Assembly (NCBI GenBank): GCA_016197285.1
Contig: JACPWD010000019.1
Location: forward strand, 37,992-101,991
DNA length: 64,000 nt
Origin: Deltaproteobacteria bacterium
GTDB lineage: Bacteria; Desulfobacterota; Binatia; Bin18
Direction of reading: 5' to 3'
The notes beneath the pieces were generated by a model, which worked only from the letters and a program-made list of their open reading frames with translations, searched no databases and was not told the origin of the DNA. Shown piece after piece: positions 3,882 to 45,093 of the stretch (its first letter is position 1; every line of letters starts with the position of its first letter). The translations under genes and the position numbers were made by a program.

Positions 3882-6800
3882 ATGTCCAATCCCGTTGCGC
3901 TCTCTCCCGCAGTTCTCCAGATTCTCCAGCCGTTGCGCGGCCAACTTGGCACCCGCTGGGAAGCTGTGCTGACCGGGGTTGCCCTCGCGCCTGACCCGGC
4001 ATTGGCGGCGGCAAGTTTCAGCCGTCTGCTCGAAGGTGGGCTCGGGTCCGGTGCCGTGCTGGAGTCCGCAACTTTGTGTAACGACTTGCTCTTCGTGCTG
4101 GGCTCCAGCCAACTCTTGTCGGGAGTGTTGAGTCGTCAGGGAGAAGGCTGGGAAGCGGTCTTTCTGGCTGACCGCACTGCTGCGCTCACAACCGTCGCCG
4201 CGCATCTGTCAGCATTGCACGAATCCCTGTCGTTCGCTCTTTCCGAGGACGAGTTCATGCGCGAGCTGCGTATCTATCGCAACCGCGAGTATTTCCGCAT
4301 TGGCCTGCGCGACCTGCTCGGGCTAGCCTCTTTGTCGGAGACCACCGCAGAATTGAGCTTCCTGGCCGAAGCCGTCGTGCAGATTGCCTACGAATACACT
4401 CGCGCCAGAGTGCGTGTTGCCTACGGTGAGGCGGTGGTACAGGAACAAGATGGCGTGCGTCCGCTTGGGTTCGTGGTGTTCGGTATGGGGAAATTAGGTG
4501 GAGTCGAGCTAAACTTTAGTTCGGACATCGACCTCATTTTTCTCTATGAACGCGACGCCGGTCTGACGACCGGTGGGGAAAAAGGCGCTGTCGAGCCCCG
4601 CATATTCTTTAGTCAGCTCGCGCAGGGACTCACCCGAGTGGTGAGTGAGCTGGTCGCCGGCGGGCGGGTCTTTCGCGTTGACTTGCGTCTTCGTCCTGAC
4701 GGGGTGAACGGCCCGATCGTGAATCCGCTGTCTAACGCCTTGCTTTATTACGAATCCTGGGGGCAAACCTGGGAGCGGGTCGCGCTGCTGAAAGCGCGGC
4801 CCATCGCCGGAGAGAAGGACCTCGGAGAGCAGTTTTTGCGCGATATCGCTCCGTTTGTGTTTCGTCGTTATCTCGACTTTTCCACCATTGAGGATATCAA
4901 AGGGATGAAAGCGCGGGTCGAACGTTCCCTGCGCGCGCCCGAGCGTGGCGGGATGAATGTGAAGTTGGGACGCGGCGGCATCCGCGAGATCGAATTTATC
5001 GTTCAAGCGCTCCAGTTGATCCACGCCGGAAAAGACGGGCGCGTCCGTGAACGCACCACGCTGCCGGCATTAGAGCGGCTGGTGGAGTGTCGCTATCTCG
5101 CGGCGGCGGATCGCGACACGCTGCGCGATGCCTATCGTTTCCTCCGCCATGTCGAGCACAAGTTGCAAATCGTCCAAGATCGCCAAACCCACACCTTGCC
5201 GGAAGATGAGGCCGGTATCCGCGCTTTAGCACGCCGTCTGCGCATCTCGGAACAGCAGGGACAAGTGGGAAGTGGAAAGTGGAAAGTGGAGAGTGACCGG
5301 GGGCCGGATGAGGCGGGGATGTTCTGGGCCGTGCTGCGCGCGCACATGGACGCCGTGCATCAGATCTTCAGCACGCTCTTTCACGACCAGGACGGGGCCG
5401 TGGCTCCGCCGCTTGGAGAGTTTTCCGAGCTGTTTCGTGAACTCCACCAGGAAGAACGTGTCATCTGGCGACTCCAGAAGTTGGGCTTCCAAGAATTGCC
5501 GGAAGCCTATGGCAACTTGCGGTTGTTGCACGATGGTCCGTCACACTCCCCGGCCACGCCCAAACGCCGAAAACTGTTATACGATCTCGCGCCGATGCTG
5601 CTGCAAGAAGTCGCGAAAGCCGCCGACCCGGATCGCGCCTTGGCCGCCATGGCGCATTTAGTGGCTTCGATCGGCGCGCGGTCGAGTTTCTTGGCGCTGC
5701 TCCGCGAAAACCCGCAGACGCTGCATACGCTGATTGGCCTCTTCGGGGCCAGCGCATATCTCACGCAAGTGTTCCTCCGCCATCCGGAGCTGCTCGACAG
5801 CCTCGTGCGCGCGGACTTGGTGCAAGTAAGCAAGGACAAGGAAACGATGCTGGCCGAACTCACGGCGCGCCTTGCCGAGGCCCGCGAGTTCGAGGACCGG
5901 CTGGATATGTTGCGGCGCTATCGCACCGAAGAATTTCTCCGCATCGGTATCAACGACAGCAATGGTTTGCTTGACGTGACCGACGTGACCGCGCAACTTA
6001 CCAGCCTGGCCGAGGTCTGTCTGGCCGGGGCGTACGAAGTCGCGCGCGTGGCGTTGATGGAACAGCTTGGCCTTGCATGTGTGCCCGGGCAACTGGCGAT
6101 CGTCGGCATGGGCAAGCTGGGCGCGGGAGAGCTGAATTATAATTCCGATCTCGATTTGATCTTCCTGTACGCTGCCGAGGAAGAGGAGGCGGCAAGTAGA
6201 ACAAGTGGAACGCTGAGCCCACAGGAATTTTTCACCAAGCTCGTCCAGCGTCTAATTTCCGTGCTCCAAGTGCAGACTCGGGAAGGGTACGTGTATAAGA
6301 TCGATACCCGCCTGCGTCCCTCGGGTCGCTCCGGGTCGCTGGTATCCTCGGTTGCCGCTTTCTTGCGTTATCACGAGACCAGCTCGCAGTTATGGGAGCG
6401 ACAAGCGTTAATCAAAGCGCGAGTGGTCGTTGGCGAGCCCGAGTTCCGCACTGTGGTGGAGACGGCGCTCGCAGGCATCGCCTATGCAGCGGGGATTGAC
6501 GCTGTCGGCGTGGCCGAGATCGACCGCTTGCGCGGGCGCATGGAACAAGAGCTGGCGCACGAACAGGCCGGACGTTTCAACATTAAGACGGGGCGTGGCG
6601 GCATTGTCGATATCGAGTTTCTTGTACAAATGCTGCAATTACGCTACGGTCAACGGCTTCCGACTTTGCGACAACGAGCGACACTTCCGGCGTTGCAGGC
6701 GTTGCACGAGGCCGGCGTGTTGTCTCAAGACGATTATCTGACGCTGACTCAGGGGTATCGCTTTCTGCGCACGGTGGAGAATCGCCTCCGGATCGAACAG

Positions 6801-6980
6801 GATCGGCCCGTGGAAGCGTTGGAGAGCGATGCCGCCTCCCTCACGCCTGTGGCACGGCGACTGGGGTACGAAGGCGAGGCGGCGGCGAGGCAGTTATTGA
6901 CGGAGTACCAGAGTCAGCGCGAGGCGATTCGCGCCTGCTATAGTCGTTGGTTCGCGCGGGAGAAAGGACAAGAAACATGA
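3882..6980 (+). CDS. glnE: Bifunctional glutamine synthetase adenylyltransferase / adenylyl-removing enzyme GlnE
   Basis: Two nucleotidyltransferase cores (GMGKLGGVELNFSSDIDLIFLYE and GMGKLGAGELNYNSDLDLIFLYA), each followed by a GlnE-type helical domain. ~1033 aa from the ATG at 3882 (MSNPVALSP...). The 3549 start in the track would read through the repeat element and is rejected. Confidence 0.9.
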   Translation: MSNPVALSPAVLQILQPLRGQLGTRWEAVLTGVALAPDPALAAASFSRLLEGGLGSGAVLESATLCNDLLFVLGSSQLLSGVLSRQGEGWEAVFLADRTAALTTVAAHLSALHESLSFALSEDEFMRELRIYRNREYFRIGLRDLLGLASLSETTAELSFLAEAVVQIAYEYTRARVRVAYGEAVVQEQDGVRPLGFVVFGMGKLGGVELNFSSDIDLIFLYERDAGLTTGGEKGAVEPRIFFSQLAQGLTRVVSELVAGGRVFRVDLRLRPDGVNGPIVNPLSNALLYYESWGQTWERVALLKARPIAGEKDLGEQFLRDIAPFVFRRYLDFSTIEDIKGMKARVERSLRAPERGGMNVKLGRGGIREIEFIVQALQLIHAGKDGRVRERTTLPALERLVECRYLAAADRDTLRDAYRFLRHVEHKLQIVQDRQTHTLPEDEAGIRALARRLRISEQQGQVGSGKWKVESDRGPDEAGMFWAVLRAHMDAVHQIFSTLFHDQDGAVAPPLGEFSELFRELHQEERVIWRLQKLGFQELPEAYGNLRLLHDGPSHSPATPKRRKLLYDLAPMLLQEVAKAADPDRALAAMAHLVASIGARSSFLALLRENPQTLHTLIGLFGASAYLTQVFLRHPELLDSLVRADLVQVSKDKETMLAELTARLAEAREFEDRLDMLRRYRTEEFLRIGINDSNGLLDVTDVTAQLTSLAEVCLAGAYEVARVALMEQLGLACVPGQLAIVGMGKLGAGELNYNSDLDLIFLYAAEEEEAASRTSGTLSPQEFFTKLVQRLISVLQVQTREGYVYKIDTRLRPSGRSGSLVSSVAAFLRYHETSSQLWERQALIKARVVVGEPEFRTVVETALAGIAYAAGIDAVGVAEIDRLRGRMEQELAHEQAGRFNIKTGRGGIVDIEFLVQMLQLRYGQRLPTLRQRATLPALQALHEAGVLSQDDYLTLTQGYRFLRTVENRLRIEQDRPVEALESDAASLTPVARRLGYEGEAAARQLLTEYQSQREAIRACYSRWFAREKGQET

Positions 6981-8443
6981 CTACGGAACAGACGGAACAC
7001 ACAGAACAGGTAGAACAGGAACGGCCGGCGGCGACGGAGGATTTCGCGTCCATGCTCGCGCACGAAGAGCCGACGCCGGCACTGGTGGAAGGCCAAATCG
7101 TGAAAGGTCGCGTGGTGCAAATCAGCGACGACAGCGTGTTTGTGGATATCCAGGAAAAGGGCGAAGCTATCATCGCCCGCGCCGAACTCGAAGATAACCA
7201 GGGCAATCTGGAAGTTGGCGTCGATGACGAAGTCGAAGCCACCGTGATCAGTACCGATGGGGAAATTCGCCTGTCGCGCAAGCTGCTCAAAGGCATGAAA
7301 GCGCGCGCCCTGCTGGAAAGCGCCGTCGCGAATGGCCTGCCGGTGGAAGGGAAGGTTATGGGTGTCGTCAAAGGTGGATACGAGATTGCCGTCGCCGGAC
7401 TGCGCGCTTTCTGCCCCTTCTCGCAAATCGATATGCGCCGGGTAGAGTCGTCGGATATCTATCTTAATCAGGTGCTGGAGTTTCGCGTGTCTCGCTACGG
7501 CGACAACGGACGGAATATCGTGCTCTCCCGCCGGCAGTTGCTCGAAGAAGCGGCACGAAAAGCTGCCGACGAGGTGCGTCAGAAAATCGTCCCTGGTGCG
7601 GTGTTGCCGGGAACGGTCTCCTCGCTGACGGATTTCGGTGCCTTCGTGGACCTGGGCGGCATCCAGGGGTTGGTGCATGTGTCCGAGCTGTCCCATTCGC
7701 GTGTGGCCAAAGCCGCCGATCTGCTCCAGGTCGGCCAGAACGTGACCGTGAAAGTGCTCAAGGTTGACGAGAAGAGCGGCAAAGGAAAGATCTCGCTCAG
7801 CATGAAAGCCCTGGAAGGCGATCCCTGGACAGCGGTGGCCGGGCAGTTGCGCGAACGGCAACTCGTCAAAGGTCGCATCGTGCGGGCCATGGATTTCGGC
7901 GCGTTCGTGGAGTTGCTCCCCGGCGTGGATGGGTTGTTGCACTTGAGCGAAGTGCCGCGCAACCTGCAAGGACAAGTCAGAGAGGCGGCGGAGAAACAAG
8001 AAGAAGTCACGGTGCTGATCCTCGGCATCGACCAGGAAAAAAAGCGCATTTCGCTTGCACTTGCCCCCGAAGGGAGCGAACCCGGCGGACAGTTGGAATC
8101 CACGGTGGCGGTAGGCTCGGTCATGACCGGGACTGTGGATCGCGTGGAACCGTTTGGCCTGTTCGTGCGGATCGGACCTGGACAGACCGGGTTGATCCCG
8201 AACGCCGAGATGGGGACGCAGCGTGGTGCCGACCATCGTCGAGAGTTCGCTCCAGGGACGGAAGTCGAAGTGCTGGTGCTAGGGATCGAGGAAGGGGGGA
8301 AGCGGATTCGCCTCTCGCGCTCGAAGGCACAGGCGCAGAAAGAGCAGGTGGAAACCCAAGCCTACCTCAAGGGTGCCGTGCCGAAAGGTCGGGGATTCGG
8401 TGTGACCCTGGGCGATCTTCTTCAGCAGAGTCGGAAGAGATAA
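6977..8443 (+). CDS. S1 RNA-binding domain protein (ribosomal protein S1-like, ~4–5 S1 repeats)
   Basis: Repeated S1 motifs (GxV..i.dfGaFVdl.g..GLvHvSel). Start ATG overlaps the glnE stop (ATGA at 6977-6980). N-terminal low-complexity stretch TEQTEHTEQVEQ. Confidence 0.8.
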   Translation: MTTEQTEHTEQVEQERPAATEDFASMLAHEEPTPALVEGQIVKGRVVQISDDSVFVDIQEKGEAIIARAELEDNQGNLEVGVDDEVEATVISTDGEIRLSRKLLKGMKARALLESAVANGLPVEGKVMGVVKGGYEIAVAGLRAFCPFSQIDMRRVESSDIYLNQVLEFRVSRYGDNGRNIVLSRRQLLEEAARKAADEVRQKIVPGAVLPGTVSSLTDFGAFVDLGGIQGLVHVSELSHSRVAKAADLLQVGQNVTVKVLKVDEKSGKGKISLSMKALEGDPWTAVAGQLRERQLVKGRIVRAMDFGAFVELLPGVDGLLHLSEVPRNLQGQVREAAEKQEEVTVLILGIDQEKKRISLALAPEGSEPGGQLESTVAVGSVMTGTVDRVEPFGLFVRIGPGQTGLIPNAEMGTQRGADHRREFAPGTEVEVLVLGIEEGGKRIRLSRSKAQAQKEQVETQAYLKGAVPKGRGFGVTLGDLLQQSRKR

Positions 8444-8503
8444 CTCGTCGGTGCAGTGTCTCGCCGGTCTTTCTGTATGAACGGGAAAACGAGGGATGGA
8501 GAG

Positions 8504-9820
8504 ATGACAGTCGATGCACGAGTCCATGCCGCCAGACGCGAAGCGTTTGTGCAAAAGATGGGTGCCGGGGTCGCGGTTTTTCCAGCGGCACCGGAGTCGA
8601 TTCGCTCGAACGATACCGGCTACCGCTATCGTCAGGACAACGACTTGTTCTATTTGACAGGCTTTCCCGAGCCAGAGGCGGTGTGTTTGCTCTCTCCCCA
8701 CCACGAGAGCGAGCGCTTCATCCTTTTCGTCCGTCCGCGCGATAAAGAGAAAGAGACGTGGACTGGACGCCGCTTCGGGGCCGAAGGCGCCAAAGAGATT
8801 TTTGGCGCGGATGCTGCCTACACCAGCGACAAGCTTGACGAAATCCTGCCTCAGCATTTGGCCACGGCGGAGCAGGTCTACTATAGCCTGGGCCGCGACG
8901 AGCGGATGAATGCGAAGATGCTCGATCTGATGGGGCGCGCGCGTATGATGCGCCCGCGCACTGGGAAAGGGCCGACATCGCTCCTCGATCCGGGCGAACT
9001 CCTGCACGACCTGCGGCTGTTCAAGTCCGAAGGTGAGTTAGGGCTGATGCAGCGGGCGATCACTGCCACCACTGCCGCTCACCATGCCGCTCTGACGCAA
9101 ACGCGGCCCGGCATGTACGAGTACGAGATCGAAGCCGTGTTGGAGTTCCAGTTTCGCCGCCACGGCGCGACGGGACCCGCCTATCCTTCGATCGTCGCTT
9201 CCGGCGCCAATGCCACGATTTTGCACTACATCGAGAACACGAGGCAGATGCAGGATGGCGATCTGCTTTTGATCGATGCGGCCTCGGAGTTCGGTTGCTA
9301 TTGTTCGGACGTGACGCGGACCTTCCCGGTGGGCGCGCGGTTTTCGCCGCTGCAACGCGAGGTGTACTCCCTCGTGCTTACCGCGCAAAAGGAAGCCACC
9401 GCCATGATTCGCCCCGGGGTCCGCTTTGATGACGTGCACCTGCGAGCGACGGAAATTCTGGTGGACGGACTGCGGGAGTTTGGCTTGCTCGCTGGAGAGA
9501 CCAAGGAGATCATCGAAAAAGGCGAGCAGCGCAAATTTTATATGCACCGCACCAGCCATTGGCTGGGGATGGACGTGCACGATGTCGGGGCCTACAAGAT
9601 CGGCGAGGAATCGCGTGTGCTGGAGCCCGGCATGGTGCTGACCGTCGAGCCAGGGATTTATATTGCCGAAGACGCCGAGGGGGTGGAAGAACGCTTCCGC
9701 GGCATTGGCATTCGTATCGAAGATGACGTACTGGTGACGGCCAACGGTCATGAAGTGTTGACCAAGGCGATTCCCAAAGAAATTGACGAGATCGAAGCGT
9801 TGCGGAAGGGGGCAGCATGA
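8504..9820 (+). CDS. pepP: Xaa-Pro aminopeptidase (M24B family, PepP)
   Basis: AMP_N-like N-terminus (HAARREAFVQKM...NDLFYLTGF). M24 metal-binding motifs (DAASEFGCYCSDVTRTFPV, HRTSHWLGMDVHD, GMVLTVEPGIY, IRIEDDVLVT). ATG at 8504 follows GGAGAG. Confidence 0.88.
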   Translation: MTVDARVHAARREAFVQKMGAGVAVFPAAPESIRSNDTGYRYRQDNDLFYLTGFPEPEAVCLLSPHHESERFILFVRPRDKEKETWTGRRFGAEGAKEIFGADAAYTSDKLDEILPQHLATAEQVYYSLGRDERMNAKMLDLMGRARMMRPRTGKGPTSLLDPGELLHDLRLFKSEGELGLMQRAITATTAAHHAALTQTRPGMYEYEIEAVLEFQFRRHGATGPAYPSIVASGANATILHYIENTRQMQDGDLLLIDAASEFGCYCSDVTRTFPVGARFSPLQREVYSLVLTAQKEATAMIRPGVRFDDVHLRATEILVDGLREFGLLAGETKEIIEKGEQRKFYMHRTSHWLGMDVHDVGAYKIGEESRVLEPGMVLTVEPGIYIAEDAEGVEERFRGIGIRIEDDVLVTANGHEVLTKAIPKEIDEIEALRKGAA

Positions 9821-12969: not shown

Positions 12970-13743
12970 ATGAAATGTCTCCTTGTCTCCGATCTGCACT
13001 ACGCTCTCAAACAATACGATTGGGTGTCGAACGTCTCGAAAGATTTTGACGTCGTCGTGATCGCGGGCGATCATCTCGATATCTCTTCGGCTGTCGAGGT
13101 GCGGGCCCAAATCGCGGTGATTCTGACTTACCTGAAGCGTCTCCATACGAAGACCAAACTCATCGTGTGCTCGGGCAATCACGATCTCGATGCGCGTAAC
13201 GATGCTGGGGAGAAGGTGGCGAAATGGATCGCGAAAGTACGTCAACTCGGAGTGTCAACCGATGGAGACTGTCTTTCCGTTGACGGCGTCTTGATTACCA
13301 TTTGTCCGTGGTGGGACGGTCCGCAGACGCGGGAGACCGTAGGCGCTCAGTTTGCACGCGATGCAGCAAAGCCGAAAGAGCAATGGATTTGGGTCTATCA
13401 TGCGCCGCCGGACGAATCGCCGACGAGCTGGGGTGGGCAGAAGCATTTCGGCGACGCCGAGTTGGTGCGTTGGATCGAGCAGTACCAGCCCGACCTCGTC
13501 CTCAGCGGCCACATCCATCAGTCGCCTTTTCGCCAAGGTGGGTCTTGGGTGGATCGGCTAGGTTCCACCTGGGTCTTCAACCCAGGAAGGCAGATAGGTT
13601 CTAGCCCTACTCATATCGTTTTCGACACCAAAGAGCGGATGGCGCTGTGGTTCTCGCTAGCTGGTGCTGAAGTCGTGCAAATGGACAAGCCGCTTACTCG
13701 TCCGGTTCCTGAACTCACCGAACTGCCAGGCTGGTTCAAATAG
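12970..13743 (+). CDS. Calcineurin-like metallophosphoesterase
   Basis: Motifs SDLHY, GDHLD, GNHD and GHIH in order. Confidence 0.8.
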   Translation: MKCLLVSDLHYALKQYDWVSNVSKDFDVVVIAGDHLDISSAVEVRAQIAVILTYLKRLHTKTKLIVCSGNHDLDARNDAGEKVAKWIAKVRQLGVSTDGDCLSVDGVLITICPWWDGPQTRETVGAQFARDAAKPKEQWIWVYHAPPDESPTSWGGQKHFGDAELVRWIEQYQPDLVLSGHIHQSPFRQGGSWVDRLGSTWVFNPGRQIGSSPTHIVFDTKERMALWFSLAGAEVVQMDKPLTRPVPELTELPGWFK

Positions 13744-14221
13744 TCGTATTGGGGTCACGGTCGGAGCCCGGACTACATTCCTCAACCTGTTGATGGACTA
13801 AGGTCTCGAGCACCTCATCCACCATGCCGAGATGGTCTTCCTGATCTTCGAACTGTTTCTTTAGGTCCGCGAGATACGTAGTGACATTATATAATCTCTG
13901 CGCGAGGAGTTTGGCGAGTTGGTAGGCAATGTCGGTCTGCGATTGGAGAAACTCGGCAGCGCGCTCGACCATGTGCATCCGTGACGACGTTAACGTCCTG
14001 ACATTGGCGGTATGAGGAATATCGAGGAGAACCGACATCTCGCCGAAGATCGCGCCGGGCTCGGATGTGGTAGCGATTTGAAAATCGCCCTTCAACACTT
14101 CGATCTCTCCTTCGATGAGAATATAGAGAATGCCGTGCTGCTCCTTTTCGACCAGGAGCACTTCACCGGGGCCGAAGGTCCGTTCTGGGAGCCCTTGGCA
14201 ATAACTCAAAATCGTGCGCAT
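13736..14221 (-). CDS. Cyclic nucleotide-binding domain protein
   Basis: cNMP-binding fold motifs (...FGPGEVLLVEKEQHGILYILIEGEIEV...IFGEMSVLLDIPHTANVRT...). Confidence 0.75.
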   Translation of the reverse strand: MRTILSYCQGLPERTFGPGEVLLVEKEQHGILYILIEGEIEVLKGDFQIATTSEPGAIFGEMSVLLDIPHTANVRTLTSSRMHMVERAAEFLQSQTDIAYQLAKLLAQRLYNVTTYLADLKKQFEDQEDHLGMVDEVLETLVHQQVEECSPGSDRDPNTTI

Positions 14222-14308
14222 CGCCGTACCTCCGCAAGGGGCTACCGTACCACGAATAGTAATGAGAATCGACAGGCGCGTCGTCGATAGGCGAGGGGAT
14301 GAAGCATG

Positions 14309-36058: not shown

Positions 36059-37165
36059 CTACTTCGCGCATGGCAGCACGACCTGGAACGTCGTCCCATG
36101 CCCCGGCTCGCTGGTGTAGCTCAACGTCCCCCCATGCGCGTGGACAAGCTGCTGTGCGACTGACAGTCCCAAGCCCGTTCCCTGCGCTTTGGTCGTGACG
36201 AACGGCTCGAACACGTTCACCCCAGCGGGAATGCCGACGCCGGTATCCGTGACCTCGATACTCACCTGTACTCCGTCGCAGCGCGCGCTGACAGTCAGGA
36301 CGCCACCCGCAGGCATCGCTTCCACCGCATTCTTGCACAGATTGAGCAGCACTTGTTTGAGCTTCTCGCCGTCGCCGAGCACGAGCGGGACTTGCGGTTC
36401 CGGCTCGTGTTGCACGGTCACGCCGCGCGCGGCGTAGTGTGACGCTTCCTGGGCCACGATCTCCTGGAGGAGACCGAGCACGTCGAGCGGTTGCCGGTTG
36501 ACGGCTTGCCGCCGCGACAATCCGCGAAACTCGTCGAGGAGATTGGAGAGATGGGTAATCTGGCTTTGCAATCCGCGTACGGATGCGTGGATTTTTTCGT
36601 CGAGGAGGTCGCGATGTTTGGTCAGCCGCCGCTCCAAGAGTTGCATGGCGATGGCCATGCTGTTGAGCGGGTTGCCGATCTCGTGGGCAAGTTTGGCCGC
36701 TGTCATGCCGATGGCCGCCATGCGCTCCCGGTCCACCAGGCGTTCTTGCAGGCGGACTTTCTCCGAAATGTCGCGAATGAAGGCGGCATAGCACACTTCG
36801 TTGTCGGTTCCGATTTCGGTGACGGATAGCTCCATGGGAAAGGACTCGCCGCTCTTCCGCCGTGCCGTGACGGTGCGGATACGACCGATGGCGTGCGGTT
36901 CGTGCGTCTGTTCGTAGCGGGCAATGTAGTCGTCATGTTCCGTCGCGTACGGTACGGGCATGAGCAGGTTGACTTTCTTACCTTGCACTTCGGCTTTGCT
37001 ATAGCCGAATATGCGTTCCGCCGCCGGGTTGAAGTGCACGATCTGTCCGTGGTGATCGATCGACACCACGGCATCTTGCGTGGCGTCGAGTAGGGCATCC
37101 GTCCAGTCTGCCGCGTGCTTTCGCGGGGCGCGGATGGGTTGCGGTCGGGGTTTCCGTTGAGCCAT
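36059..37165 (-). CDS. PAS-domain sensor histidine kinase
   Basis: PAS (ATQDAVVSIDHHGQIVHFNPAAERIFGY) plus HisKA (AHEIGNPLNSM) plus HATPase (DTGVGIP...GTGLGLSV). Confidence 0.85.
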   Translation of the reverse strand: MAQRKPRPQPIRAPRKHAADWTDALLDATQDAVVSIDHHGQIVHFNPAAERIFGYSKAEVQGKKVNLLMPVPYATEHDDYIARYEQTHEPHAIGRIRTVTARRKSGESFPMELSVTEIGTDNEVCYAAFIRDISEKVRLQERLVDRERMAAIGMTAAKLAHEIGNPLNSMAIAMQLLERRLTKHRDLLDEKIHASVRGLQSQITHLSNLLDEFRGLSRRQAVNRQPLDVLGLLQEIVAQEASHYAARGVTVQHEPEPQVPLVLGDGEKLKQVLLNLCKNAVEAMPAGGVLTVSARCDGVQVSIEVTDTGVGIPAGVNVFEPFVTTKAQGTGLGLSVAQQLVHAHGGTLSYTSEPGHGTTFQVVLPCAK

Positions 37166-39962: not shown

Positions 39963-41768
39963 TCAGGTGAGCCCGGAGCGACGTAACGCGGTGAGCACCC
40001 GTTCCAGCACGACCGGATCTTTATAGGGAAGGCGCTGTTGGAACATGTCCAGCGAAAAGGCTGGGCTGAGTCGCAACGAGGTTTGTCCTGCGAGCTGCGC
40101 TTCTTGGGTGGCCCCACGTTCGCCATGAATCACGGCTAAGAAGCCGTGGGCGGGGAAATAATTCGGGTTGCGGGTGAGCGCGCGTTTGAAAGTGGCGATC
40201 GCGTCTTCGTAGCGCTTGAGGAGGTAGTAGGCGTGTCCGAGATCCCAGAGATACCAGGTGGGATACAGGGGGTTGAGCCGCATGGCCTTTTCCACCAAGG
40301 GCGGAGTTTCTTCGGGCCTGCCGGAGAAATTGAGGGTATCGGCGAGCGCCGCGTAGGCGTCCGCGTGATTCGGATCGAGGGCGATGGCGTGCTCGACTTC
40401 GCCGATGGCTACGTCGTATTGTCGCTTCCACAGATGCACGACGCCGAGGAGTCGGTGTCCCTCGGGGAGCAACGGGTCAAGGGCGATGGCGCGCTGCGCT
40501 GCCGCCATCGCCAGGTCGAGTTCGCTCGTGTCATTACTCCATCCCATGCTCCACTGCTCGAAATGCCCCCAGCCTAGACAGGTATGGGCCATGGCGAAGT
40601 GCGGATCGAGTGCGAGCGCTTGGGCGAACAGCGCCATGGCTGCGAGGTTGGCCTCCCGCGTGGACCGCGCGTTGAGTTCGCGCCCGCGCAGGTACGTGTC
40701 GTAGGCGTCGAGGTTGGCGGTCAGTGGCGTGCCCAGCCGGTGTTGCTCGCCTTCCGTCAGTTTGACCTCCAGCGCGGCGACGATCCTCCGCGTCACTTCG
40801 TCTTGCAGGGTGAAAATATCTTCCAGGTTGCGGTCGTAGCGTTCCGCCCAGAGGTGATAGCCGGTCGTGGCGTCGATGAGCTGGGCGGTAATGCGCACGC
40901 GTTGCCCGGCTTTGCGGATGCTGCCTTCCAGGACATAGCGGACGCCGAGTTCTCGACTCACTTGTTCAGGTTTGACGATTTTGTCTTTGTACGCCAGGAC
41001 AGAGTGGCGAGCGATGACAAACAGTCCCGACAGCTTCGAGAGGTCGGTAATCAAATCCTCGGTGATGCCGTCGCTGAAATACTCTTGCTCGGGGTCGCTG
41101 CTCATGTTGAGGAACGGAAGGACGGCAATCGATGGTTGTTCGGGCAAGGAGAAACGTACCCCTGGGGACGAGACTGACGGCGATGCTGCGTTTGCGGCTG
41201 GAGCGTCGGACCTTTCGGCTGCGATGCGCACGCGATAGGCGCGCACCGGGCGGGCGATGTTTTTGACTGGCTGTTCGCCCAGGTACTCGTAAGCGAAAGC
41301 TAATTTCGTTTCCACCTGATCGTACACCGTGCCCGAGAGACAAATCCCCCCGGCCTCGGCCAACCCTTCCAATCGTGCCGCGATATTCACGCCGTCGCCA
41401 TAGATCCGTTCCCCTTCCACAATTACGTCGCCCAGATTGATGCCGATACGGAATTCCATGCGGCGCGCTTGCGGAAGCTCCGTGTTGCGGGTTTTTAGGG
41501 ATTGTTGGACCTCGACCGCGCAGGTGAGCGCGTCGATGACGCTGGCGAACTCGGCCAGCAGGTTATCGCCGGGAGAGTCGACGACCCGTCCGCGATGGGC
41601 GTGGACCAGGTCGCTCAGCAGCGTGCGATACTCGGTCAACATTCGCACGGTGGCGACTTCATCTACGCCCATGAGCCGACTGTAGCCGGCGACATCGGCG
41701 CTGAGGATGGCGGCCAAGCGACGCTCGACGGGAGGCATGGGGAGAGAAGGATGTTCCGTGCTGCTCAT
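39963..41768 (-). CDS. Class III adenylyl/guanylyl cyclase (CHD domain) with C-terminal TPR repeats
   Basis: Cyclase core LAAILSADVAGYSRLM...FRIGINLGDVIVEGERIYGDGVNIAARLE. TPR-like repeats at the C-terminus. Confidence 0.85.
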   Translation of the reverse strand: MSSTEHPSLPMPPVERRLAAILSADVAGYSRLMGVDEVATVRMLTEYRTLLSDLVHAHRGRVVDSPGDNLLAEFASVIDALTCAVEVQQSLKTRNTELPQARRMEFRIGINLGDVIVEGERIYGDGVNIAARLEGLAEAGGICLSGTVYDQVETKLAFAYEYLGEQPVKNIARPVRAYRVRIAAERSDAPAANAASPSVSSPGVRFSLPEQPSIAVLPFLNMSSDPEQEYFSDGITEDLITDLSKLSGLFVIARHSVLAYKDKIVKPEQVSRELGVRYVLEGSIRKAGQRVRITAQLIDATTGYHLWAERYDRNLEDIFTLQDEVTRRIVAALEVKLTEGEQHRLGTPLTANLDAYDTYLRGRELNARSTREANLAAMALFAQALALDPHFAMAHTCLGWGHFEQWSMGWSNDTSELDLAMAAAQRAIALDPLLPEGHRLLGVVHLWKRQYDVAIGEVEHAIALDPNHADAYAALADTLNFSGRPEETPPLVEKAMRLNPLYPTWYLWDLGHAYYLLKRYEDAIATFKRALTRNPNYFPAHGFLAVIHGERGATQEAQLAGQTSLRLSPAFSLDMFQQRLPYKDPVVLERVLTALRRSGLT

Positions 41769-41891
41769 TGTCTGTCATTATTCGGTGGACGGCAGGTGCC
41801 TGTCAATTGGACTGCACACGATACGGGGAGCCCTACCCTTAGGCGGGACGCTTCTGCTAGATACGAAGCACTGAGGAAAAAGGGGGAGATT

Positions 41892-44645
41892 ATGGAGCGC
41901 ATTTATCGTGTCATTCTTCACCGTCCGAAGCTGATACTGTTTTTTCTTGCGCTGGTGACGGTATTTTTCGCTTACCATGCACGTTTCATTCGTATCGACA
42001 GCTCGATCGAGAGCTTGCTGCCGCAGGACGATCCGGAGAAACAATACTACAACGATGTGCGCCGACTCTTCGGCAGCGAAGATGTCGCGGTCGTCGGCCT
42101 TATTACCGACAACATCTACACTCCCCAGACGCTTCAGAAGATCAAGCGCCTCACCGAGGAATTCAAAAAGATCCCCGAGGTCAAGAGCGTTTTCAGCTTG
42201 AGCAACGCGCCCGACATCGTTGCGAAGATCCTCGGCGAACCGCAAGATTTACTGATTCCCGAACTGCCCACGACCATGGAAGCCGCCGCGCCGCTGAAAG
42301 ACCGGGTGGCGGCCCAACCGATCTATCTCAAGAACCTAGCCTCGGCCGATGGCCGCGCCGCCGCCATCAATATCGTCTTCCTCGAAAGCATCACCGATAA
42401 CGAGTTCGTCCGCCGTGGCGTCGATGAAAAAATTCAAGCCGTCATCGACGCCGAGAACGGCGGGCCGGAACAGCTCTATTACACCGGTCTGCCCCATTTC
42501 AAAGCCGCGTCGGCCAAGGCCATGGCCGAGGATCTCAGTCGGTTGTTACCGTTGGCGCTCCTCTTGATCGTGATTGTCCTGGCGCTGTGTGTCCGTTCCG
42601 TGCGTGGGGTCGTGCTGCCAGTCCTCGCCGTGTTGATCAGCTTGATCTGGACGCTGGGCATTATGGTCCTGTGCGGGAGTCGCTTGAGCCTCGGCACCCT
42701 GGCTTTGCCTCCTCTGATCCTCGTGCTGGGCATCGCCTACTCGCTGCATGTGATCACCGAGTATTTCGAGCTGGCGCGGCCCGGGCGCACGGTGAAAGAG
42801 GTGCTGATAGAGACCGGACGAAGTATTAATGCTCCGGTGTTCATGGCGGCGGTGACCACGGTCTTGGGCTTTCTTTCGCTCTTCACGAACAACATCGTCA
42901 GCATCCGCGACATGGGGATCTACTCCGCCATCGGCATCACCATCGCTTTCGTGCTGGCCGTGGTCTTCGTTCCTGCCGCGCTCGCGCTGCTCGAGCTTCC
43001 GTCCCGTCGGAGCGAGACCGACTCGCCGGCGTTGACGGCAGCGCTCCGGACGTTGACGGCTCATGTCATTCGTCATCGCTACGCGATCATCGGTGTCAGC
43101 GTGGTGATTGGGCTCTTGTCGTTGTGGCCGATTCCTTCGATCCAAGTAGGCTCGAATTTTCTCTCGATTTTCCGCGAAAACCATCCCGTCCGTCAGGCGA
43201 GCGAGATGATCAACCGCAATCTGGTTGGCAGCATGGCGTTTTACGTCGTGATCGACGGGAAAGAAAACGACATCATGCGGCAGTGGGATACGCTGAAACG
43301 CCTCAAAGAGCTGCAGGAGTACATCAACTCTCTACCGGGTGTGGACAAGACGGTGTCCCTGGTCGATTACTGCGATCTCTTCGATCAAGGTATGCGTTCG
43401 CTCCCACCCGAGGAAGGGACGGAGGCCGTGCCTCCAGAGCAACTCAAAAGCTTTTGGGAAGACCCGACCCGGCTGACCGATGTCATGCAGATGATCTTTC
43501 TCAATCCGAGCTATGTGGGCGCCGTGGTCAATCATCCCAACTACTCGCGCTCCAATATCCTCGTGCGCACCTCGCTGACGCGCCCGAGCGAGGTGGCCGC
43601 AGTCGTCGAAAAAATTCACGCGTTCGCCAAGGAGCATTTCCCGCCGGCCGATTTGGTCGTGCATCCGACCGGCTCCCTGATTTTGAGTTCGCGGACGGCG
43701 AGCAATTTGATCTCCGGCCAAGTGCAAAGCCTGGCGCTCACGGCGGCCGTGATCTTCGTCGTCATGACGCTGATGTTTCTTTCCGTCCGGGTCGGGGTGA
43801 TCGCCATGATCCCCAACATCTTTCCGATCCTCATGTTCTTTGCTTTGATGGGGGTCAGCGGCGCCGTGCTCAGCCTGAGCACGAACACCATCGCCTCGAT
43901 CGTGCTGGGGTTGGCGGTGGACGACACCATTCACATCATGTCGCGCCTGAGCGCCGAAGTGCGTACGACCGCAGACCAAAAAGAAGCCTTGCTGCGCGCA
44001 CTGAGCACGGTGGGCAAGCCGACGCTGTACTACTCGCTCCTAGTCTTTCTCGGCTTTTTGACCTTCGGCTTATCCTCGTTCGTACCAGTCCAAGAATTCG
44101 GCTTACTGTCGGCTGTCACCATCCTGTTTGGCGTGGTTGCCGAGCTAGCGCTCCTTCCTGCGCTGTTAGCGACCACGCCGGTGATCACCTTGTGGAACGT
44201 GCTCTATCTGAAGCTCGGGCGCGACCCACACAAGACGATTCCTTTGTTTGCCGGGCTGCGTCCGTTCCAGGCTAAGATCGTCACCCTGATGGGCGAATTG
44301 CGATCTTTTCCCAAAGACGAGGCGATCATTCGCCGTGGCGAGCAGGGCAACGAAATGTACGTGCTCATCAGCGGTACGGCGGATGTGTTCATTCCCGCGC
44401 CGAACGGCAATCGCAGGGTCAATACCTTAGAACGTGGCGACGTCTTCGGAGAAATGGGCTTGCTCCGCCATCACGAGCGCACGGCTGACGTGATGGCGAC
44501 GGAAGAGGTGGAAGTGCTGGCGGTGAACGAACGGTTCCTCGACCGCATCAAGCGACGCTACCCGCGCATCGCTACGGAGATTTTCTTCAACTTGTCGAAG
44601 ATTCTGAGCGACCGCTTGGAACAGTCGCAGCGGGGTGGAAAATAG
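41892..44645 (+). CDS. MMPL/RND-superfamily transporter (two 6-transmembrane-helix bundles with periplasmic loops) fused to a C-terminal cyclic-nucleotide-binding domain
   Basis: MMPL-like topology with SSD-type transmembrane regions. The C-terminal ~115 aa are a cNMP-binding domain (FPKDEAIIRRGEQGNEMYVLISGTADVF...ERGDVFGEMGLLRHHERTADVMA). ATG at 41892 (RBS AGGGGGAG). Confidence 0.8.
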   Translation: MERIYRVILHRPKLILFFLALVTVFFAYHARFIRIDSSIESLLPQDDPEKQYYNDVRRLFGSEDVAVVGLITDNIYTPQTLQKIKRLTEEFKKIPEVKSVFSLSNAPDIVAKILGEPQDLLIPELPTTMEAAAPLKDRVAAQPIYLKNLASADGRAAAINIVFLESITDNEFVRRGVDEKIQAVIDAENGGPEQLYYTGLPHFKAASAKAMAEDLSRLLPLALLLIVIVLALCVRSVRGVVLPVLAVLISLIWTLGIMVLCGSRLSLGTLALPPLILVLGIAYSLHVITEYFELARPGRTVKEVLIETGRSINAPVFMAAVTTVLGFLSLFTNNIVSIRDMGIYSAIGITIAFVLAVVFVPAALALLELPSRRSETDSPALTAALRTLTAHVIRHRYAIIGVSVVIGLLSLWPIPSIQVGSNFLSIFRENHPVRQASEMINRNLVGSMAFYVVIDGKENDIMRQWDTLKRLKELQEYINSLPGVDKTVSLVDYCDLFDQGMRSLPPEEGTEAVPPEQLKSFWEDPTRLTDVMQMIFLNPSYVGAVVNHPNYSRSNILVRTSLTRPSEVAAVVEKIHAFAKEHFPPADLVVHPTGSLILSSRTASNLISGQVQSLALTAAVIFVVMTLMFLSVRVGVIAMIPNIFPILMFFALMGVSGAVLSLSTNTIASIVLGLAVDDTIHIMSRLSAEVRTTADQKEALLRALSTVGKPTLYYSLLVFLGFLTFGLSSFVPVQEFGLLSAVTILFGVVAELALLPALLATTPVITLWNVLYLKLGRDPHKTIPLFAGLRPFQAKIVTLMGELRSFPKDEAIIRRGEQGNEMYVLISGTADVFIPAPNGNRRVNTLERGDVFGEMGLLRHHERTADVMATEEVEVLAVNERFLDRIKRRYPRIATEIFFNLSKILSDRLEQSQRGGK

Positions 44646-44726: not shown

Positions 44727-44835
44727 TAATTGTCATTCCGAGAAGCGGAGCGACGAGGAATCTCAAGAAGGCAGGGACAATACGAGATTCCTCGCCTTCT
44801 CTTTGTTCCGGCTCGGAATGACACTCTCTCATCGT
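44727..44835. repeat. Nested-palindrome interspersed repeat (MITE/REP-like), copy 2 (compact form)
   Basis: Outer inverted repeat GTCATTCCGAG...CTCGGAATGAC enclosing inner inverted repeat GAGGAATCTC...GAGATTCCTC. Homologous to the element at 3636-3795. Confidence 0.65.
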
Positions 44836-44856: not shown

Positions 44857-45093
44857 TCATTCCTCTTCATCTTCTAACTCATTTTCCAGGGCTTCCTCTT
44901 GCTCTTCGAGGCGCATGATAATGGTGCTTAACGCAGTCTGCACCGAGTCCATCGCCTCGCGGAAATCCTCCTCGGTGGTCACCGCACCAGCGGCGACACG
45001 TTCTTCGCAATCGCGGATGACTTCGCTGACGGCGAATTTTGCTGACTTAATGAGGCCGATCCACTGACCGACAATCGCTAGGGCGTCTTCCAT
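44857..45093 (-). CDS. Small acidic hypothetical protein (78 aa)
   Basis: RBS GGAAGGAGA before the ATG. Glu-rich C-terminus (EEQEEALENELEDEEE). Confidence 0.45.
   Translation of the reverse strand: MEDALAIVGQWIGLIKSAKFAVSEVIRDCEERVAAGAVTTEEDFREAMDSVQTALSTIIMRLEEQEEALENELEDEEE

Follow-up and report, generated by a model that had tools for sequence, protein, structure and literature searches.

A divergently transcribed class III nucleotidyl cyclase and MMPL-type RND transporter carrying a fused C-terminal cyclic-nucleotide-binding domain in a member of the Binatia

The 64-kb stretch of DNA analyzed here (the window), which belongs to contig JACPWD010000019.1 of a Deltaproteobacteria bacterium assigned to the Binatia, carries two divergent genes, one encoding a soluble class III nucleotidyl cyclase with a TPR region and the other an RND transporter of the MMPL/HAE3 type, the C-terminus of which is fused to a cyclic-nucleotide-binding (CNB) domain (Table 1). 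This anatomy had been proposed in an earlier reading of the nucleotide sequence made without any database searches (the sequence-only reading), and it was borne out by the open reading frames (ORFs) and the Pfam matches. The transporter gene starts at the ATG in position 41892, 7 bases past a GGGGGAG ribosome-binding site (RBS), and stops at 44645 inside an enclosing long ORF (41502-44645, + strand). Exactly one cyclase domain was found in the window, and it adjoins the transporter.

Table 1. Features of the cyclase and transporter locus, with their positions in the window (aa, amino acids; TM, transmembrane helix)
Feature	Coordinates	Strand	Basis or remark
MMPL/HAE3-type RND transporter gene, 917 aa, fused C-terminal CNB domain	41892..44645	+	ORF, RBS, Pfam, AlphaFold, Foldseek
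TM10 motif LGLAVDDTIH (aa 672-681), candidate proton-relay residues D677/D678	43905..43934	+	Invariant in alignment A1
Junction after TM12, aa 762-782 TPVITLWNVLYLKLGRDPHKT, from membrane domain to CNB domain	44175..44237	+	Conservation in A1
CNB domain, aa 783-917	44238..44642	+	Pfam PF00027, PDB sequence matches, model
Phosphate-binding cassette FGEMGLLRHHERTA, aa 852-865 (G853, E854, R863, T864, A865)	44445..44486	+	Alignment with PKG
Divergent intergenic region, 123 bp	41769..41891		Between cyclase and transporter start codons
Soluble class III nucleotidyl cyclase gene, 601 aa, central domain and TPR region	39963..41768	-	Pfam Guanylate_cyc, TPR
Cyclase catalytic domain, aa 14-185	41214..41729	-	PDB 3MR7 match
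TPR repeats, aa 417-570, presumed sensor or protein-interaction module	40059..40520	-	Pfam TPR_11, TPR_17, TPR_2, TPR_1, others
Histidine kinase, four PAS domains, 786 aa	37574..39934	-	Pfam PAS x4, HisKA, HATPase_c; gene call in L085
Single-domain response regulator, 121 aa	37209..37574	-	Pfam Response_reg; start overlaps kinase stop (TAATG)
Second PAS histidine kinase, 368 aa, last gene of probable cyclase operon	36059..37165	-	Pfam PAS, HisKA, HATPase_c

The membrane body of the transporter matches the Pfam MMPL model over two stretches (E=1.7e-37, 129.6 bits as against a cut-off of 20.5), as well as the Sterol-sensing and Patched SSD models, and shows weak similarity to AcrB. TIGR00921 (HAE3) tops the list of NCBIfam models with 249.3 bits, which is below the cut-off of 351.9: judging from this curated cut-off, the protein can be described as HAE3-like, yet lying outside the HAE3 family proper. 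In the AlphaFold model, which was based on a 14-sequence alignment (mean pLDDT 75.9, pTM 0.66), 12 TM helices are present and the periplasmic domains are located between TM1 and TM2 and between TM7 and TM8. When this model was compared with the PDB using Foldseek, the matches were MmpL4, MmpL5, MmpL3, HpnN, NPC1/NCR1, NPC1L1, Patched, and Dispatched, with E-values of 1e-25 to 1e-17 and a target-normalised TM-score of about 0.75; these proteins make up the branch of the RND superfamily that handles lipids and sterols. To our knowledge, none of these RND proteins (MmpL, HpnN, NPC1, Patched, Dispatched) carries a CNB domain. Residues D677, D678, T679, and H681 of TM10 and Y283 and H286 of TM4 were found to be invariant in alignment A1 (14 sequences). 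By analogy with other RND proteins, in which residues of this kind relay protons, they would fit an active proton-coupled transporter.

The CNB domain extends over about 135 residues rather than over the last 115 or so to which it had previously been allotted. The Pfam cNMP_binding model (PF00027) matches residues 804-888 with E=2.8e-20 (72.5 bits, gathering score 27.5), which answers the concern expressed at the outset that the domain might fail to match such profiles, and the sequence matches in the PDB include PKG, PKA-R, CRP, and SthK (best E-value 2.1e-24). A beta-barrel followed by C-terminal helices is present in this part of the AlphaFold model, with a lower level of confidence. Since the C-terminus of RND proteins is cytoplasmic, the domain is expected to face the nucleotide pool. 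Its phosphate-binding cassette fits the pattern G-E-x-[AG]-L ... R-[ST]-A, which is kept in the close orthologs: FGEMGLLRHHERTA matches the cGMP cassettes of Plasmodium PKG, FGE(R/A)ALL....R(T/S)A, residue for residue, with the spacing typical of PKA and PKG. The canonical cassette is retained by most of the approximately 65 fused homologs, which belong to many phyla. A cassette of this kind does not distinguish cAMP from cGMP. In view of these features, we are fairly confident that the CNB domain binds a cyclic nucleotide.

The junction connecting TM12 to the CNB domain is also conserved. Residues W768, L771, L775, G776, D778, and P779 are invariant among the close relatives aligned in A1, and both the (I/V)T(L/V)WD..L.LG junction and the C-terminal helix RRYPRIA persist across phyla, at an overall identity of only about 30%. 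A second protein with a CNB domain is encoded elsewhere in the window (13739-14308, - strand, 190 aa, Pfam cNMP_binding E=7e-13); the cassette of this protein departs from the canonical form, PHTA standing where R[ST]A is expected.

The distribution of the fusion was analyzed in clustered proteins and in genomes. At least 115 of the best 120 homologous clusters (59-91% identity) show the MMPL plus cNMP_binding architecture. The genomes (one per GTDB species) were scanned with a pattern corresponding to the most conserved stretch of the transporter, I[AV]LG[LVI]AVDD in TM10; this gave 492 relatives, among which the best 80 were kept, and the genes are fused at about 60 of these 80 species-level loci. 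The carriers belong to at least eight phyla and include Binatia, Methylomirabilota, Myxococcota, Gammaproteobacteria (Solimonas, Panacagrimonas, Nevskiaceae, Oceanococcus, Salinisphaera, and Spectribacter), Alphaproteobacteria (Albimonas), Acidobacteriota, Verrucomicrobiota, Omnitrophota, Desulfobacterota, and Spirochaetales. Solimonas sp. SE-A11, two Spectribacter species, Salinisphaera sp. PC39, and an Albimonas sp. are cultured isolates. The architecture is therefore widespread and already visible in the databases, where a protein identical to that of the window is recorded as an "MMPL family transporter" in a Deltaproteobacteria metagenome-assembled genome and some members have been labeled "RND superfamily exporter / CRP-like cAMP-binding protein" by the JGI pipeline. 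The unit had been presented as an uncommon one, which is difficult to reconcile with the presence of the fusion in hundreds of clusters, at least eight phyla, and cultured strains. Its sequence conservation indicates that the fusion is ancient. No description of an RND-CNB fusion and no experiment on one were found in a full-text literature search on the fusion and its possible partners.

The possibility that the fusion might be an artefact, in which an MMPL gene and a small, independent CNB gene have been joined by a chimeric assembly or a frameshift error, was raised along with the original description. One relative, L089 (72% identity), does show an 818-aa MMPL protein (6001-8457) followed immediately by a separate 96-aa CNB ORF (8459-8749), which starts two bases later. 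In the window, the ORF is continuous, an identical protein is encoded in an independent assembly, more than 100 clusters and about 60 genomes, including those of isolates, show the same architecture, and the sequence of the junction is conserved. The independent assembly (Logan, L085) also shows the same order of genes (receiver, PAS kinase, cyclase, transporter). An assembly chimera was rejected on these grounds; the artefact is effectively refuted, and it is essentially certain that the MMPL-CNB fusion is real. The split in L089 may be due to a frameshift error or may represent a natural division of the fusion; just downstream of the split gene, there are cyclase-TPR fragments with an intervening HNH gene. 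In some Binatia, MMPL-CNB paralogs occur in tandem or a few kb apart, as in L001 (8001-10769 and 11030-13846) and L088 (6001-8736 and 11324-14071), where the pair is interleaved with GAF/sigma-54 activators.

The cyclase facing the transporter matches the Pfam Guanylate_cyc model (PF00211) at residues 20-170 (E=1.3e-10, 41.6 bits as against a cut-off of 21.9), and the closest solved structure to its catalytic domain is PDB 3MR7 (E=1.2e-40). The metal-binding residues D25 and D68 and the transition-state residues N128 and R132 are present and conserved among its relatives, and the enzyme is probably active, as far as can be judged from these residues. At the positions specifying the purine, the alignment gave Asp64 and Arg121, whereas the same columns in 3MR7 contain Lys and Asp. 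A search of 1.84 billion cluster representatives yielded 7,565 relatives of the cyclase at E<=1e-30; in the best 150 proteins, the Asp/Arg pair was present in 113 of 174 domains and the Lys/Asp pair in 9, which amounts to a co-varying charge swap. The Asp/Arg pair suggests a large subfamily of cyclases; we know of no characterised member of this group. Since the Lys/Asp pair is absent, the enzyme's previous designation as an adenylyl (cAMP) cyclase is unproven. The cyclases adjacent to the gammaproteobacterial transporters have Gln and Thr at the substrate-specifying positions, a pair which presumably recalls the Rv0386 type with its relaxed specificity. Orthologs of the cyclase (57-74% identity in the catalytic segment) are divergent from MMPL-CNB genes in L001, L010, L011, and L015, and in L013 the divergent cyclase is truncated and belongs to a different, more distant type.

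The intergenic region shared by the two genes was measured at 123 bp, in agreement with the value of about 120 bp estimated previously; with Met11 taken as the start of the cyclase, as was done by another gene caller, its length increases to 153 bp. A sigma-70-like site directed toward the cyclase (TTGACA-18-AATAAT, minus strand, 41806 to 41777) shows 11 of the 12 consensus matches; this is a lead only, the 5.7-kb promoter scan having given one match where the shuffled sequences gave a mean of 1.4, which is no better than chance. No sigma-70-like site for the transporter was detected in the same 5.7 kb. The -10 element ends 9 nt ahead of the cyclase ATG at 41768, neither of the candidate starts is preceded by an RBS, and these sequence features suggest that the cyclase mRNA may be leaderless. 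The blocks CTGTCAAT and GCTAGATAC are common to the intergenic regions of the window, L001, and L005. When the divergent region was aligned with those of L001, L005, L010, and L013, no convincing CRP-like palindrome was found, only short blocks (CTGTCAAT; TACCC..GCTAGATAC), and scans of the window with Rfam and for tRNAs gave no matches.

The cyclase is followed by genes of the two-component type. The 786-aa PAS kinase lies 28 bp past the cyclase stop and is preceded by a AGAGGGAG RBS, and the second PAS kinase begins 43 bp past the receiver stop. A PAS-kinase/receiver/PAS-kinase cluster had been correctly recognized next to the cyclase and placed upstream of it; since the genes are on the same strand, in a 3' position, and separated by gaps of 28 bp, a TAATG overlap, and 43 bp, they are located downstream and are probably co-transcribed with it. 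The cyclase, the two kinases, and the receiver therefore probably form one operon, judging from their spacing. These two-component genes are not conserved beside the orthologs of the cyclase, and a homolog of the second PAS kinase is retained in L005, a locus without a cyclase.

To examine the association between cyclases and fused transporters, hidden Markov models for the cyclase, CNB, and LolA-like domains were built from the sequences collected, and all the loci fetched were scanned. A class III cyclase was found within 10 kb of 23 of the 65 fused genes. The flanks examined (0.93 Mb) contain 29 cyclase ORFs, or about 31 per Mb; cyclase-rich genomes have about 3-5 cyclases per Mb. All 29 are situated at most 4.5 kb from the transporter (0.55 Mb examined), and none at 5-10 kb (0.38 Mb); a naive binomial test, uncorrected for shared ancestry, gives p=2e-7 for this distribution. 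Four unrelated architectures are involved. Cyclase-TPR proteins, in divergent or convergent orientation, occur in the window, L001, L010, L011, L086, L087, and L089, whereas a Zn-ribbon-cyclase-AAA_16 protein is present in 13 gammaproteobacterial loci (L042, for example), in an apparent operon with a LolA-like gene and the transporter gene; in these loci, the three genes are on one strand and are separated by gaps of 27-134 bp. A cyclase-AAA_16 protein in which the Zn-ribbon was not detected is encoded in L087, 34 bp downstream of the transporter, and in L019. CHASE2-cyclases occur in L021 and L025, and a MASE7-cyclase in L056, where it was identified with Pfam; a second, divergent cyclase was assigned to the MASE7 type in L055, L057, and L067 by alignment similarity only. 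The apparently independent recruitment of four cyclase architectures is the strongest argument supporting the idea that the signal is aimed at the transporter, and the suggestion that the cyclase of the window is the probable signal generator gains from this clustering.

On the basis of these data, the following mechanism can be proposed. The transporter would be a proton-driven RND protein of the lipid-handling MMPL/HAE3 kind with a cytoplasmic CNB domain at its C-terminus, and the neighbouring soluble class III cyclase would make the cyclic nucleotide, cAMP being the default guess. The cyclase would presumably respond to an input sensed by its TPR region, and possibly also to the co-transcribed PAS-kinase and receiver genes. 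The nucleotide would then bind to the CNB domain, and the resulting movement, transmitted to TM12 via the conserved junction helix, would switch or tune the export of a hydrophobic envelope compound. The nucleotide might either activate or inhibit export. We consider that this mechanism as a whole, in which a cyclic nucleotide from the adjoining cyclase switches the export of an envelope-lipid type of substrate, has slightly better than an even chance of being correct.

Several points weigh against it. Nucleotide binding and gating are both steps that we infer from the sequence, and the linker (residues 767-800) and the C-terminal helices have pLDDT values of less than 50 in the AlphaFold model. 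The cyclase lacks the canonical Lys/Asp pair, so that its product and even its activity are unproven. The density of about 31 cyclases per Mb covers the flanks only. The counts also ignore shared ancestry, the gammaproteobacterial loci amounting essentially to one event, and cyclases were likewise found near 2 of the approximately 13 non-fused relatives (L014 and L063), a control group which is too small to be informative. Lastly, some close relatives have no cyclase nearby. L005, the transporter of which is a 91% ortholog, keeps the flanking synteny (an amino-acid kinase upstream; a thiolase, BacA, and an S15 peptidase downstream) without any cyclase within 10 kb, the position of the cyclase and the kinases being occupied by PAS kinases only. 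No cyclase was found in L003 (about 8 kb of upstream and 5 kb of downstream flank) or in L088 (6-kb flanks) either. Since L005, L003, and L088 do without a cyclase, its pairing with the transporter is dispensable, and the earlier idea of a self-contained unit finds no support (the L003 and L088 orthologs are 60-66% identical).

These loci are also those which speak in favor of another interpretation, namely that the transporter is regulated by a cell-wide pool of cAMP or cGMP, the neighbouring cyclase being part of a variable island of signalling genes and not a dedicated partner. The position and orientation of the cyclase vary among close relatives, as would be expected in this case, and some of the nearby cyclase genes have been disrupted by insertions (L086 and L089). 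This interpretation does not easily account for the fact that all 29 neighbouring cyclases are within 4.5 kb and none at 5-10 kb, nor for the four independent architectures, nor for the tight spacing of the gammaproteobacterial cyclase, LolA-like, and transporter genes, and we regard it as unlikely, although it is the most serious of the alternatives. Taken together, the patterns of gene neighbourhood support a link between cyclase and transporter that is real but facultative, and the chances that the cyclase of the window is the dedicated source of nucleotide for its transporter seem to us to be evenly balanced.

The CNB domain itself has not evolved in the same way throughout the family. In one clade of Binatia/Methylomirabilota paralogs (L009, L010, L012, L017-L020, and L047; proteins P0099, P0106, and P0117), the cassette is degenerate (FGVT..L...ER[VIL][ST]E or EMFA): the Glu and the Arg-Thr-Ala residues have been lost, while the CNB fold and the RYPRIA helix have been kept, and the proteins in this clade probably no longer bind nucleotide. 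The retention of the domain without its cassette indicates that it has some value beyond nucleotide binding. Domains of the CRP/FNR type which bind other ligands are known to exist, and the CRP-fold domain of the transporter might likewise bind a different ligand or serve as a dimerisation or docking module. In L010, moreover, a divergent cyclase-TPR gene is paired with one of these degenerate paralogs (FGVTSL...EMFA), so that adjacency to a cyclase does not always mean nucleotide binding, which is a further point against the proposed mechanism. Since the protein of the window and most members of the family keep the G-E...R-[ST]-A residues with the PKA/PKG spacing, and cyclases are recurrent neighbours, a non-nucleotide function seems improbable in the case of the window transporter, and a cyclic nucleotide is still the preferred ligand.

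In a set of paralogs, the same membrane body is fused to a kinase. In L014 (10001-13249, + strand), the CNB domain is replaced by a HisKA plus HATPase_c transmitter, and the body is 53% identical to that of the window transporter over residues 1-772 and 83% identical to that of the MMPL-CNB protein P0271. Kinase fusions were also found in four more clusters (P0274, P0276, P0280, corresponding to L090 7001-10234, and P0281). The homology between the CNB and kinase variants runs through TM12 and the WD(L/V)LY helix (residues 768-772 in the window), past which the CNB variant continues with LKLGRDPHK and the kinase variant with a coiled coil leading into the H-box. Because the kinase module replaces the CNB domain exactly past this helix, the TM12 exit helix can be regarded as a general signalling junction: in the kinase paralogs, the state of the transporter would drive the kinase, and in the CNB paralogs, the nucleotide would drive the transporter. 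The fusion of an RND/MMPL body with a sensor-kinase output appears to be undescribed. Downstream of the kinase fusion in L014, there is a 121-aa receiver and, beyond it, receiver and cyclase fragments, apparently the remnant of a receiver-cyclase. In L090, the kinase fusion is flanked by receivers and a Ser/Thr-kinase/histidine-kinase hybrid, and the homologous receiver showed no detectable cyclase domain; a downstream receiver-cyclase was therefore rejected as a general trait of the kinase fusions, having been seen only in L014.

In view of these kinase-swapped paralogs, it seems that RND bodies can serve as sensors as well, and the question arises as to whether the MMPL body of the window is mainly a sensor of lipids or other hydrophobes, i.e., a transceptor resembling the sterol-sensing-domain proteins, rather than a bulk exporter. 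In the kinase fusions, the membrane part can serve only as the input; two receivers and the receiver-cyclase remnant come after the kinase in L014; and the transporter of the window itself scores on the Sterol-sensing and Patched SSD models, as mentioned above. In the CNB variant, on the other hand, the CNB domain is an input domain and the transporter its only output, the AVDDTIH residues of TM10 and Y283/H286 of TM4 are invariant, and most of the relatives are in operons with a LolA-like carrier, which suggests that real cargo is handed over. We therefore give little credence to a mainly sensory role and retain that of a regulated exporter. A broader scheme is conceivable, in which the MMPL-CNB proteins form a cross-phylum family of second-messenger-gated RND lipid exporters, the kinase-fused sisters of which sense on behalf of receiver-cyclases, giving a closed circuit where flux sets the level of cyclic nucleotide and the nucleotide sets export; this scheme is speculative and rather doubtful.

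Information about the possible substrate is provided by the genes encoding LolA-like proteins (PF17131), one of which lies directly beside the transporter gene, on either side, in about 50 of the best 80 loci. Pfam confirmed the LolA_like assignment in L042 (9116-9913) and L025 (5650-6489). The gene is upstream of the transporter in most phyla and downstream in a clade of Binatia/Methylomirabilota paralogs. This adjacency suggests that a hydrophobic cargo may be handed over to a periplasmic carrier. Scanning with the model identified no LolA-like gene in the window or near the transporters of L001, L005, and L011, which form one subclade. In L021 (3547-9850), genes encoding a CHASE2-cyclase, a DUF928 protein, a patatin-like phospholipase, a LolA-like protein, and an MMPL-CNB protein follow one another on one strand, which constitutes a lipid-related context.

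Among the carrier lineages, Nevskiales and Salinisphaerales have been linked to hydrocarbon use. In Thalassolituus, an MMPL/LolA-like protein was induced 42-fold on the n-C28 alkane (PMC6304351), and alkane degradation has been predicted in Binatia by genomic analysis (PMC8262859). These alkane-related papers provide leads and do not constitute evidence about the substrate of the transporter, which may be related to the handling of very hydrophobic compounds; a lipid-like substrate strikes us as reasonably likely.

A gene for a thiolase-like lipid-transfer protein and one for BacA are located downstream of the transporter. Their synteny is limited to the 91% ortholog, and they are separated from the transporter by a repeat and by an ORF on the opposite strand; the idea of deducing the substrate from these neighbours was dropped in view of the limited synteny and of this separation. 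The repeat, which begins 86 bp past the transporter stop, is a nested perfect inverted repeat of 93 bp (44731-44823) with 12-nt and 11-nt arms (TGTCATTCCGAG...CGAGGAATCTC...GAGATTCCTCG...CTCGGAATGACA), present only once in the window; a terminator hairpin and a miniature mobile repeat are both conceivable. The ORF located between the transporter and the thiolase gene (44857-45093, - strand, 78 aa) has a strong GGAAGGAG RBS, a very acidic C-terminus (EEQEEALENELEDEEE), and no Pfam match.

RND pumps of the MMPL/HpnN type build and remodel the outer envelopes of bacteria, and MmpL3 is a leading drug target in tuberculosis. A built-in cyclic-nucleotide switch would provide a fast, direct route from the sensing of the environment to the export of envelope lipids, and it would provide the poorly understood cAMP and cGMP systems of environmental bacteria with a concrete target. 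If the MMPL-CNB proteins do form a family of second-messenger-gated RND exporters, they would be the first RND pumps on which a cyclic nucleotide acts directly. Cultured strains of Solimonas, Spectribacter, Salinisphaera, and Albimonas carry members of the family, so that the idea lends itself to direct testing.

Among the systems already known, HpnN, the hopanoid transporter of the HAE3 family (PDB 5KHN and 6WU0), resembles the transporter of the window in its fold, its 12 TM helices, and its two periplasmic domains, and is the best sequence match among the solved RND proteins in the TM2-6 region (5.7e-14). HpnN moves lipid from the inner to the outer membrane, and both proteins belong to the HAE3-like family, but HpnN is not known to carry a CNB domain. 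An identity with HpnN was rejected on the basis of the scores obtained with the hopanoid models (145.9 bits versus a cut-off of 751.85 for TIGR03480 and 70.3 versus 1100 for NF052374), and the neighbours examined (cyclase, kinases, thiolase, BacA, and peptidase) included no genes of hopanoid biosynthesis. The mycobacterial lipid and siderophore exporters MmpL3, MmpL4, and MmpL5 (HAE2) have the closest folds (E 1e-25 to 1e-20, TM-score about 0.75), but they are only 14-16% identical to the transporter and have the accessory partners MmpS and AcpM; the C-terminal tail of MmpL3 is not known to form a CNB domain. Most of the relatives of the transporter, unlike the window itself, share the two-gene organization in which an MMPL gene is accompanied by a LolA-like (PF17131) gene, as in the case of Thalassolituus TOL_3187.

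As regards the cyclase, 3MR7 (a cyclase domain from Ruegeria) and Ma1120 share with it the catalytic fold, the two Asp residues that bind metal, and the Asn and Arg of the transition-state site, and 3MR7 differs by its Lys/Asp pair from the Asp64/Arg121 pair of the window. A C-terminal TPR sensor region is present in many proteobacterial cyclases, and we take the cyclase-AAA-TPR type to be Rv0386-like.

As regards regulation, small-protein binding is the only post-translational control of RND pumps listed in a 2023 review, where MFS-CNB fusions are noted as uncharacterised regulatory modules (PMC10710835). The closest parallel is provided by the SthK and MloK1/LliK channels, in which a cytoplasmic CNB domain located past the last membrane helix at the C-terminus gates a membrane protein; the CNB domain of the transporter matches those of SthK and LliK at about 1e-10. 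The difference from these CNB-gated channels, and from the MFS and ABC proteins carrying CNB domains, is that the membrane part here is an RND pump. Membrane transporters regulated by a CNB domain are thus of a known kind, and what is new, according to the sequence comparisons, is the predicted occurrence of this mode of regulation, as yet uncharacterised, on an RND lipid pump.

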